Shown here: in pieces, positions 43,607 through 48,054 of the stretch
Position numbering within the stretch: position 1 is the stretch's first letter
Layout of the letters: the number at the start of each line of letters is the position of its first letter
Sequence record: OP557969.1
Length of the DNA stretch: 64,000 nt
Reading direction: 5' to 3' (one strand)
DNA from: Escherichia phage ph0011
Position numbers and translations under genes: made by a program
Notes under the pieces: model-generated
The model's database searches: none
Told to the model about the DNA's origin: nothing
What the model saw: only the letters and a program-made list of their open reading frames with translations

Positions 43607-43722
<116 letters not shown>

Positions 43723-43729
43723 CAAAAGA

Positions 43730-43803
43730 CGGGGTATAGCACAATTGGATAGTGCAAGAGAATTCTAATCTCTAGGTTGGGGGTTCAAGTCCCTCTACCT
43801 CGG
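43730..43803 (+). tRNA. tRNA-Arg(TCT): tRNA-Arg (anticodon TCT)
   Basis: Acceptor CGGGGTA/TACCTCG (one G-U), D-arm GCAC..GTGC, anticodon stem AGAGA/TCTCT with loop ATTCTAA, T-loop TTCAAGT. Confidence 0.7.
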
Positions 43804-43827
43804 CCTACTTTAATTAAAGGTTAAACC

Positions 43828-43992
43828 ATGACGCATGAAGAATGGATGAATGACATTAATTTTAGATATGCAGGTATCGGTAACTGGAGAAAGTATCATT
43901 GGGAAATCATATCAGACCCAGCAGAATACGATAAACTTATGAATCATGAAGTGTATCCGTGGTTCTTTATTGAAATAATGGTACGATTATGA
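43828..43992 (+). CDS. MTHEEW-family mini-protein
   Basis: Own reading: 54 aa MTHEEWMNDINFRYAGIGNWRKYHWEII...; below track cutoff. Confidence 0.45.
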   Translation: MTHEEWMNDINFRYAGIGNWRKYHWEIISDPAEYDKLMNHEVYPWFFIEIMVRL

Positions 43993-44149
43993 CACATGAA
44001 GAATGGATGAATGACATTAATTTTAGATATTCGGGTATCGGTAAATGGCTAAAGTATCATTGGGAATTCATTTCAGAGCCACATCTGTATGATAAACTTA
44101 TCAACGATTCTGCATATAAAATGTACTTAATTGAACTACTGGTACGAAT

Positions 44150-44153
<4 letters not shown>
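43989..44153 (+). CDS. MTHEEW-family mini-protein
   Basis: Own reading: 54 aa MTHEEWMNDINFRYSGIGKWLKYHWEFI...; ATGA overlap. Confidence 0.45.
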
Positions 44154-44322
<169 letters not shown>

Positions 44323-44325
44323 AAG

Positions 44326-45038
<713 letters not shown>

Positions 45039-45044
45039 GATAAA

Positions 45045-45078
<34 letters not shown>

Positions 45079-45084
45079 GAATTC

Positions 45085-45440
45085 CACAATCAGACGTATA
45101 TGGTGTAAGTTACGTCGATGCAATCCAGAACAAGATCTCTGGTACTCTAGGAAGTGGTTAATGTTAACCTAGACGGGTTTGATAATTGGACGATAGGCAA
45201 TTATTACTTGACTAGCAGGTTTAAACTAGAGGTGACTATCCTTCACCAAACTGGAAAACCGGATGGACTTTTATTTAAAAGGGTAAGGCGTGGAAATATG
45301 TTTACAGTAGTTGCTTTTAGTAGCCTGTACGCCCCACGTCAAGGTAGCCGAAAGGCAAGTTAAAACGGGTGGTTATAAAGCTGAATTAACAGCGGCGTTT
45401 AAAAGCGTCACCATCCATTTTTTTTAATTAAAGTTGGTGA
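45085..45440 (+). ncRNA. candidate non-coding (stable RNA?) transcript downstream of repeat promoter copy 3
   Basis: ~355 nt with no convincing ORF, higher GC than surroundings, directly after a promoter and ending near a T-run (CACCATCCATTTTTTTT). Confidence 0.3.
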
Positions 45441-45441
45441 T

Positions 45442-46080
<639 letters not shown>

Positions 46081-46099
46081 CTTTTTAATTTAAAAGTAC

Positions 46100-46127
46100 T
46101 TTACTGTAGTGTTTAGTACCGTATAAT
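46100..46127 (+). promoter_or_regulatory. possible promoter (TTTACT-16-TATAAT) upstream of HNH gene
   Basis: AGTACTTTACTGTAGTGTTTAGTACCGTATAATG; weaker -35. Confidence 0.35.
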
Positions 46128-46153
46128 GTAAACAAAAGGATAAAATAAAACTC

Positions 46154-46678
<525 letters not shown>

Positions 46679-46700
46679 TTAAAAAATCAGTACTTTATTA

Positions 46701-46914
<214 letters not shown>

Positions 46915-46937
46915 TCATTGCACTCTTCTCTTGTAAT

Positions 46938-47085
<148 letters not shown>

Positions 47086-47106
47086 TTCACATGATATAGG
47101 GTACAC

Positions 47107-47364
<258 letters not shown>

Positions 47365-47380
47365 ATAAAAAGAACGAAAA

Positions 47381-47422
<42 letters not shown>

Positions 47423-47432
47423 GATTCCCGAT

Positions 47433-47559
<127 letters not shown>

Positions 47560-47578
47560 AGAGGTACTTCGAGTATGC

Positions 47579-47634
<56 letters not shown>

Positions 47635-47653
47635 AACTACTTTTTAATTGACG

Positions 47654-47704
<51 letters not shown>

Positions 47705-47721
47705 TACAACCGACAATGACT

Positions 47722-47788
<67 letters not shown>

Positions 47789-47963
47789 GAAGAAACTGCT
47801 AAACAGCTTGAAGAACTTTGTAGTGCTGCACCGATGCCGACTCTTGGCTTAATCAAGTTGATGCGTCGAAATAAGAAAAATTTAAAATAATACAGTAAGA
47901 TGGCCTCCCCTCCATATCATGAGAGTATAGAGACTTGTTGGTTATCTTACTTTTAAACAAACT

Positions 47964-48037
47964 GCCTCAATAGCAAAATTGGTAATGCACACGTTTTGTA
48001 AGCGTGAGATTTTTCCGTTCGAGTCGGAATTGGGGCA
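47964..48037 (+). tRNA. tRNA-Thr(TGT): tRNA-Thr (anticodon TGT)
   Basis: Acceptor GCCTCAA/TTGGGGC (one G-U), D-arm GCA..TGC, anticodon stem CACGT/GCGTG loop TTTGTAA, T-arm TTCCG-TTCGAGT-CGGAA. Confidence 0.65.
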
Positions 48038-48054
48038 CAAAATAAAGGCACACT

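Follow-up and report, generated by a model that had tools for sequence, protein, structure and literature searches.

The tRNA cluster of the virulent phage T4 contains two genes without an open reading frame (ORF), rnaC (species 1, 139 nucleotides [nt]) and rnaD (species 2, 119 nt), which lie on the same strand as the tRNA genes and a few nucleotides away from them, and the role of stable non-tRNA RNAs has been a question since these two species. In this study, we analyzed a stretch of 64,000 nt of Escherichia phage ph0011 (OP557969.1), a jumbo coliphage of the 121Q/PBECO4 type (Asteriusvirus). We call this whole stretch the window; positions are window coordinates on the plus strand unless another locus is named, and L numbers denote loci of the comparison. 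Within the tRNA region of the window, ~350 nt without a conserved ORF lie between a promoter and the next gene (ATG at 45442), and we found that this segment very probably consists of structured non-coding RNA genes. Its first part, module 1, belongs to a previously undescribed family and is, in kind, one of the stable structured RNAs of phage tRNA clusters; its second part, module 2, appears to be an independent gene resembling those of small RNAs. About 25 deposited Escherichia and Salmonella jumbo-phage genomes match the segment at 97-99% identity. An earlier reading of the letters made without database searches (the sequence-only reading) had proposed one discrete RNA of 300-350 nt here, analogous to the T4 species. 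The non-coding character and a covarying structure on the plus strand stood up, whereas the single RNA has given way to two.

The likeness to T4 lies in the genomic slot. The window and its homologues have an ORF-less gene in a tRNA cluster, on the strand of the tRNAs, and the slot of module 1 in Bragavirus and in T4-like Aeromonas phages is like that of rnaC and rnaD. The RNAs themselves differ. A sensitive blastn search for homology to rnaC or rnaD gave a best local match of 21 nt (E = 0.075), and a covariance model of module 1 (R1), which we built from nine close sequences, had no match in the T4 locus (L003). Furthermore, rnaC ends in a tRNA-like T-arm (CCGGGUUCGAAUCCCGG) that module 1 lacks, and module 1 is longer than either T4 RNA and carries three pseudoknots. 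Module 1 and T4 species 1 and 2 are probably analogous RNAs, unrelated in sequence and fold; the analogy drawn earlier holds for a place between two tRNAs in T4-like (Bragavirus, Aeromonas) and T5-like phages but not for descent.

Other described RNAs share single traits with module 1. Theta ribozymes are much shorter than 190 nt. These minimal ribozymes of the hepatitis delta virus (HDV) type lie within a few nucleotides 3' of phage tRNA genes, a role in tRNA 3'-trailer processing has been proposed for them, and their carriers are gut Caudoviricetes that apparently infect Bacteroidota and Bacillota (PMC10879173). Module 1, in contrast, has ~190 nt and another helix order, is carried by phages that infect Gammaproteobacteria and can also follow a promoter directly. 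Genes for GOLLD and ROOL RNAs are frequently located close to tRNA genes of phages or prophages, and, like module 1, these RNAs are complex, strongly covarying and of enigmatic role. RNAs of this type have been the subject of a cryo-electron microscopy study (10.1101/2024.12.08.627333). They are several-fold larger than module 1 and come from other hosts, and both families are in Rfam, where neither matches module 1. Lastly, PA5oct, a jumbo phage related to RaK2 and 121Q that depends on host RNA polymerase, has ORF-less RNAs without database similarity that each make up 2-5% of phage reads (PMC7318152). They set a precedent for abundant ORF-less RNAs in a related jumbo phage. Those RNAs sit in the terminal repeat and not in a tRNA cluster, and they are not known to be homologues of module 1 or 2.

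The R1 model detects exactly one copy of module 1 in the window and full-length copies in all other loci, at scores of 65-234 bits. The full-length matches belong to Asteriusvirus, Alcyoneusvirus, Bragavirus, Novosibvirus, Ishigurovirus, Ceceduovirus and one Stephanstirmvirinae phage, as well as to four metagenome contigs and one IMG/VR contig, and the homologues span seven phage lineages plus metagenome contigs. By blastn, unannotated intergenic DNA of Bragavirus (Proteus, Morganella and Shigella phages) and of Proteus Novosibvirus phages shares 84-93% identity with the initial ~188 nt (45080-45267), with a weaker match of the module 1 core in T4-like Aeromonas phages and in Klebsiella phage KP13-16. 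Such identity across otherwise unrelated jumbo, T4-like and T5-like phages points to lateral transfer and to selection for the RNA itself. The 92.6% identity to T4-like phages of Proteus and Morganella ends exactly at the borders of module 1 (query 2-188), and this, together with homing-endonuclease genes nearby in several genomes, suggests that it is the RNA gene itself that has spread laterally. Module 1 was found neither in 5,426 complete E. coli genomes and 72,556 plasmids nor in one genome each of 185,579 prokaryotic species, and it is rare in IMG/VR and in the metagenome collection. The carriers of the family are exclusively large virulent phages that infect Enterobacterales or Aeromonas. 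A relaxed pattern search gave further candidates (13 in IMG/VR and 6 loci in bacterial genomes), all of which except L022 were rejected by the covariance model; the pattern match in L028 was GC-rich coding sequence.

The structure of module 1 was drawn by eye from alignments and single-sequence folds and then scored on an alignment of 16 sequences. In its final form it has 53 pairs in 10 helices with three pseudoknots, in the order P1, P2 hairpin, P3 hairpin, P4 enclosing P1', P5, P6a/P6, and P7/pseudoknot 2/P8 (Table 1). Standard pairs are formed in 95.2% of cells, compared with 25-39% when the partners are slid by 1-3 columns. Covariation with related phages, a check that the sequence-only reading had asked for, spoke clearly for an RNA: 37 of the 53 pairs have changed on both sides in a compensatory manner, against a mean of 21.6 over 500 shuffles, and no shuffle reached the observed value on any of five measures. 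When the nine close sequences were aligned with nothing but MAFFT, pairing was 98.9% and 18 pairs were compensated, and RNAalifold, run on an unfitted MAFFT alignment of 15 sequences, returned part of P2 as well as P5, P6a and P7.

Double-sided changes occur in each of the three pseudoknot helices. P1 covaries as CCUCA/UGAGG (KP13-16, L021), AGCAC/GUGCU (Aeromonas 65) and CUACA/UGUAG (L022), and pseudoknot 2 covaries as ACCC/GGGU, GCCC/GGGC, UCCC/GGGA and GUCC/GGAC. Pseudoknot 3 (45206-45229) is compact and of the H type; its loop 1 is a single nucleotide and its loop 3 is rich in A (UUAAA), and the two outer pairs of P6a covary as C-G, G-C and A-U. Among the hairpins, P3 differs in length between lineages. 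The orientation of the gene is fixed by near-invariant U-G pairs in P6a (15/16 sequences) and P8 (13/16), which fit only the plus strand, and it agrees with that of the tRNA genes and the promoter. The invariant unpaired stretches (CGGG, GACGAUA, UUGAC, GCAG, AAAC, GAGGU and CCAAAC) are clustered. We rejected a long-range pairing of CGGGnUUG, which follows P4, with CCAAACU, which follows P7, on account of uncompensated changes in RaK2, Proteus phage 2, L020B and SdyM006, and a stem closing the 5' and 3' ends in the single-sequence fold (UCCA/UGGA) is not conserved; P1 and pseudoknot 2 were put in its place. RNAalifold offers an alternative 3-bp helix between UAG of P6 and CUG of P8, which is compensated in AP1 and CC2 and mismatched in both copies of L020; an alternative conformer of module 1 built on this helix is possible.

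Table 1. Features of the segment in the ph0011 window, and neighbors of module 1 in related loci
Feature	Position	Strand	Remarks
Sigma-70 promoter cassette	45050..45078	+	-35 TTGACT, 17-bp spacer, extended -10 TGaTATAAT; -10 hexamer 45073-45078
Module 1	45081..45271	+	~190-nt structured non-coding RNA, new family; covariance model R1, 235.7 bits
P1/pseudoknot 1	CCAC 45084-45087 with GUGG 45154-45157	+	3' strand in P4 loop; binds 5' terminus
P2 hairpin	45089-45098 with 45111-45119	+	Loop with conserved GGYG; 7/9 pairs changed on both sides
P3 hairpin	CCAGA 45125-45129 with UCUGG 45138-45142	+	4/5 pairs compensatory
P4	UCUAGG 45146-45151 with CCUAGA 45168-45173	+	6/6 pairs compensatory; 99% of cells paired
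P5 hairpin	AUAAUUG 45182-45188 with CAAUUAU 45198-45204	+	7/7 pairs compensatory; invariant GACGAUA in loop
P6a (pseudoknot 3)	ACUUG 45206-45210 with CAGGU 45216-45220	+	98.8% of cells paired
P6 (pseudoknot 3)	CUAG 45212-45215 with CUAG 45226-45229	+	Paired in 16/16 sequences
P7 hairpin	GGUGA 45231-45235 with UCACC 45243-45247	+	Covaries as GGUUA/UAACC, GGUAA/UUACC, GGUCU/AGACC
Pseudoknot 2	AUCC 45238-45241 (P7 loop) with GGAC 45265-45268 (3' terminal)	+
P8 hairpin	CUGG 45251-45254 with CCGG 45259-45262	+
69-amino-acid ORF	45154..45363	+	Spurious; spans both RNA modules; GTG start is the 3' strand of P1
A/U-rich linker	45272..45285	+	14 nt; promoter of the same type at this place in relatives
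Module 2	45286..45427	+	Second non-coding RNA; hairpin-rich, three-way-junction terminator
Module 2, 5' irregular hairpin	GGCGUGG 45287-45293 with CCACGUC 45334-45340	+	Encloses UACAG/CUGUA and GUUGCU/AGUAGC
Module 2, GNRA hairpin	45347-45356	+	GCC-GAAA-GGC
Module 2, intrinsic terminator	GGGUGGU 45367-45373 with ACCAUCC 45410-45416; A + U8 45418-45425	+	Two hairpins inside the stem; minimum-free-energy fold
Module 1 in SdyM006, PM2 (Bragavirus)			Between tRNA-Gly and tRNA-Asp
Module 1 in Proteus phage 2 (Novosibvirus)			Between two tRNA-Leu genes
Module 1 in AP1 (Aeromonas)			Directly after tRNA-Pro
Module 1 in KP13-16, L021			After tRNA-Leu
Module 1 in L020			Two diverged copies flank tRNA-Arg
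Module 1 in L022			Upstream of Thr-Ser-Gly tRNA run

A coding function for the segment can be set against the same homologues. The argument for it is a frame of 69 codons with a GTG start that is present in ph0011 and that would make this or another small protein the product of the segment. The equivalent frame is broken by stops in 8 of the 11 homologues that were translated (RaK2, L018, PM2, SdyM006, L020A, L020B, Aeromonas 65 and AP1), and on neither strand does any frame run uninterrupted through all homologues. The substitutions compensate RNA helices instead of being synonymous, a ribosome-binding site is absent, and the frame has no significant match in PHROG (best E = 0.16). GAGGUGA (45229-45235), which could be taken for a Shine-Dalgarno sequence, has no start codon behind it and forms the 5' strand of P7, where it covaries with the opposite strand. 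We give a small protein next to no credence, and the earlier judgment that the segment lacks a credible ORF was right. In dozens of deposited genomes "hypothetical proteins" are called across the RNA, and many jumbo-phage records have one to three of them in this segment. These calls are likely misannotations, which our finding corrects.

We scanned the window and its homologues with the 4,227 models of Rfam 15, at the gathering threshold and at E <= 10. At the gathering threshold, the whole window yielded only seven tRNAs, and at E <= 10 the region 44900-45600 yielded only scattered chance matches of <=18 bits. Nothing overlapped the module 1 homologues in nine loci scanned at the gathering threshold or in four divergent loci scanned at E <= 10, and ARAGORN called no transfer-messenger RNA (tmRNA) or tRNA in the segment. 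The Rfam search suggested by the sequence-only reading thus assigned the segment to no family even at E <= 10. The models that were tried without a match to module 1 include those of tmRNA, RNase P RNA, 6S RNA, group I and II introns and riboswitches, as well as ribozymes and large ornate RNAs (HDV-like, hatchet, pistol, twister, hammerhead, glmS, GOLLD, ROOL, HEARO, raiA and OLE). On inspection, helix order and conserved sequences did not fit an HDV-like ribozyme, the P4/CR-I/CR-V elements of RNase P, group I P3-P7 or the tRNA-like domain of tmRNA. Short likenesses to CR-I of RNase P (GGAAGUGG), to the GTPase-associated center of 23S rRNA (AGCAG..UUUAAA) and to c-di-GMP-II and 5S (CCGAUGG) are accounted for by covarying internal helices. 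We also found no description of module 1 in the literature by searching for sequence strings, T4 stable RNAs, non-coding RNAs of tRNA clusters and jumbo-phage transcriptomics, the contents of a 2023 catalogue aside.

In every lineage, module 1 lies among tRNA genes and on their strand, and in Bragavirus, Novosibvirus, AP1, KP13-16, L020 and L021 it has a tRNA on either side. In SdyM006, PM2, Proteus phage 2, AP1, KP13-16, L020B and L021 it starts 0-4 nt past the CCA encoded by the upstream tRNA, with spacers between this CCA and P1 of AAUU, AAAUU, AUU, AA, AAA or CUUA; in the window, L018, RaK2, L019, Aeromonas 65 and L020A it is not within ~5 nt 3' of a tRNA. The first arrangement, which follows a complete tRNA in at least five lineages, raises the question of whether module 1 represents a new class of self-cleaving ribozyme that cuts at or near its own 5' end and frees the upstream tRNA with a short 3' trailer. 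Its function would then be like that of the HDV-like theta ribozymes of gut phages, which set a precedent directly 3' of phage tRNAs (PMC10879173), and a multiply pseudoknotted fold with many invariant junction nucleotides is also seen in glmS, HDV and twister. The second arrangement speaks against such a ribozyme: in the window and L018 module 1 follows a promoter, and in RaK2 and L019 it follows the terminator-like stem of another RNA, so that there is no tRNA to free. Moreover, the spacer between CCA and P1 varies in length and sequence, and an A/U spacer in this position is an ordinary RNase E-type site of E. coli tRNA processing. No Rfam ribozyme family matches even at E <= 10, a length of ~190 nt far exceeds what scission of a 3' trailer needs, and the helix order cannot be mapped onto the nested double pseudoknot of HDV (P1-P2-P3/L3-P1'-P1.1-P4-J4/2(C)-P2'), since module 1 has no equivalent of its P3/L3/P1.1. 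We therefore consider a ribozyme of this kind unlikely.

The tRNA genes are the only constant neighbors of module 1. Clustering of the ORFs within a few kilobases of it gave no protein family common across lineages, and a conserved protein partner was rejected as a candidate when the sole cross-lineage cluster turned out to be spurious ORFs over the RNA itself. This freedom from any protein gene, the restriction to virulent phages and a riboswitch-like size, compact pseudoknotted architecture and clustering of invariant unpaired nucleotides would suit a free-standing aptamer, that is, an orphan riboswitch-like receptor or sponge for a metabolite or for a nucleotide second messenger of defense. 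An expression platform and a consistent downstream gene are absent, however, and no riboswitch family matches; we know of no established mechanism in which an RNA acts as a small-molecule sponge. An aptamer is, in our estimation, improbable.

The promoter and the boundaries of the segment make it possible to propose how the RNAs could be produced. As the sequence-only reading had recognized, the promoter is part of a repeat: the window holds three copies of its 29-mer (45050, 45809 and 46701) with at most one mismatch, where zero copies are expected by chance, and those at 45809 (one mismatch) and 46701 (exact) precede two tRNA-Ser genes by 7 and 11 nt. Transcription is expected to start at ~45085/45086, judging from the position of the promoter, and another promoter lies upstream of the segment at 44739. 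The tRNA genes of the window (43636-43805 and 45844-48038) are all on the plus strand. The segment is relatively GC rich, as had been stated, with a G+C content of 0.395-0.415 over 45100-45399 against 0.29-0.33 in the flanks.

Comparison by blastn divides the segment into two separately conserved parts, 45081-45271 and 45286-45427, the second of which matches only RaK2-like Klebsiella jumbo phages and, over ~50 nt, Kuravirus. In RaK2, L019 (a RaK2-like metagenome contig) and L018 (a metagenomic 121Q-like contig), a TTGAAC/TTGACC...TATAAT promoter stands between module 1 and the next RNA, and in L018 that next RNA differs from module 2. The two modules are therefore separate genes. The lineage of the window has lost the intervening promoter, and since the window lacks one, modules 1 and 2 are presumably cotranscribed here. 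In L018 (minus strand, ~600-770), the RNA behind the promoter that follows module 1 has ~165 nt and is closed by a long stem (AUCAACGGUGAGUAACAUUG...CAAUGUUACUCACCAUUGAU); a further promoter and a tRNA-Arg come after it, and the whole resembles a string of promoter-RNA units.

The fold of module 2 has a z score of -3.3, and none of 200 shuffles folded as well. Conservation of module 2 extends over Asteriusvirus and Alcyoneusvirus, and Kuravirus shares the 5' hairpin. In four sequences, 92.9% of cells are paired and eight pairs are compensatory, among them pairs of the 5' hairpin as found in Kuravirus and of the two hairpins inside the terminator, whose stems also covary between the window and RaK2. 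The structure was drawn from the fold of the window itself and rests on these four sequences; our confidence in it is moderate. The run of Ts near which the sequence-only reading had let the RNA end has eight Ts, does follow a stem and lies shortly before the next gene, and a simple terminator scanner missed this stem because its loop is a branched insert. The stem and U8 (45367-45425) end 17 nt before the ATG at 45442, an arrangement that would also be expected if the whole segment were a cis-acting 5' leader or attenuator of the gene 45442-45816. The homologues of module 1, however, precede tRNAs, another RNA or unrelated ORFs and not this gene. Module 2 of RaK2 and L019 precedes an ORF of 47 amino acids that, by eye, is unlike the 124-amino-acid ORF of the window, which joined no cross-lineage protein cluster. 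RaK2 and L019, moreover, have this terminator module a second time, at the end of a different RNA that precedes module 1. A leader function is thus very unlikely.

The explanation that we favor, with two non-coding RNA genes, the strong promoter cassette that also serves tRNA genes of the phage and a module 1 that acts in trans, is probable when taken as a whole. Host RNA polymerase would start near 45085, read through both modules and stop at U8, and the A/U linker between the modules would be cut. In the arrays of T4-like and T5-like phages, host nucleases of tRNA processing would release module 1: the A/U spacer behind the upstream CCA would be cut by an RNase E-type activity, RNase P would cut at the next tRNA, and exonucleases would then trim back to pseudoknot 2. 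In the window, module 1 has its own promoter in place of such an array. The mature RNA would be a stable one, protected from exonucleases. E. coli exonucleases degrade RNA from 3' to 5', and the burial of both termini in pseudoknots would suit a long-lived RNA in such a host. We do not think that module 1 is an mRNA, a cis-regulator or a base-pairing RNA. It could act in trans through its shape, by binding or decoying a conserved component of the host machinery for tRNAs or translation, or a defense factor aimed at such a component. A target of this kind is suggested by the constancy of the tRNA neighbors, by hosts that span Enterobacterales and Aeromonas, by the absence of a covarying phage protein and by the occurrence of the RNA behind promoters as well as behind tRNAs. 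This last point also makes it less likely that module 1 serves only in cis to release tRNAs. A decoy or scaffold mode is offered tentatively, as somewhat short of an even prospect.

Several points weigh against the favored explanation. Some of the covariation counts derive from an alignment that had been fitted to the model and is therefore biased toward the structure, although the MAFFT-only alignments A3 and A4 give the same picture, and the 16 homologues are a small and phylogenetically clumped set. The -10 element ends at 45078, and the expected start falls inside the 5' strand of P1, so that pseudoknot 1 may be limited to 2-3 bp in the primary transcript of the window, unless a longer transcript that reads through from the promoter at 44739 is processed. 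L018 avoids this conflict, with a spacer that is 4-5 nt longer. Module 1 could also be among the 8,495 unnamed IMG/VR candidates of the 2023 catalogue (PMC10690425). That the RNA is made and stable, like its end points, we infer for ph0011 and every other carrier phage alike, and the trans-acting decoy or scaffold role is a guess from context.

Few RNAs of ~190 nt combine ten covarying helices with three pseudoknots. Such complex RNAs of known function are mostly ribozymes, riboswitches or the cores of RNA-protein machines, whereas module 1 has no described relative and is confined to virulent phages. There is a real but rather doubtful prospect that it founds a new functional class, either a self-cleaving or tRNA-processing ribozyme or a shape decoy or sponge against a host factor, spread horizontally with tRNA clusters; if so, the host factor neutralized could belong to a tRNA-targeting or nucleotide-signaling defense. 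The family makes the role of stable non-tRNA RNAs tractable, since it offers a defined fold, many natural variants, cultivable phages of E. coli, Klebsiella, Proteus and Aeromonas, and a genome in which two copies have diverged. These natural paralogues are useful for asking which parts of module 1 confer specificity. They belong to L020, a metagenomic phage contig, are clearly diverged and occupy 2102-2283 and 2419-2607 on the minus strand, with one tRNA-Arg(ACG) between them.

We also noted several neighboring features. Endonuclease genes are annotated or apparent near module 1 in SdyM006 (segD-like), ZPAH1 (HNH) and L019, and in the tRNA region of the window an ORF of 174 amino acids (46154-46678) looks, by eye, like a homing endonuclease of the HNH type. 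L019 has a group I intron at 2460-2692 (Rfam, 104 bits), ~1.8 kb downstream of module 1. In RaK2 (L005), an unannotated tRNA (2258-2330; Rfam, 55 bits) is followed by an ORF-free "module 0" of ~160 nt that abuts module 1 (2258-2494 in all) and finishes, at its 3' end, with another copy of the three-way-junction terminator of module 2; the counterpart in L019 lies at 247-416. Kuravirus XT18 (L008) has a GC-rich region of ~650 nt without an ORF (2130-2790), with a hairpin like that of module 2 at 2497-2560 and a tRNA-like 3' end (T-arm GUAGGUCCGAACCCUAC plus ACCUGUAACCA, ~2628-2775) that neither ARAGORN nor Rfam calls.

Downstream of the segment, the tRNA at 45844 (45809-45933 together with its promoter cassette) would begin exactly 7 nt past the -10 hexamer. 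Because the cassette sits so close upstream, a leaderless transcript is implied, and the need for RNase P may be absent. The tRNA-Ser at 46740 (46701-46831 together with its promoter, which lies 11 nt before it) has the unusual anticodon ACT. On the other side of the segment, three tandem paralogous ORFs of 54 amino acids (MTHEEWMNDINFRY...), with overlapping stop and start codons, lie at 43828-44314, just downstream of tRNA-Ser and tRNA-Arg.

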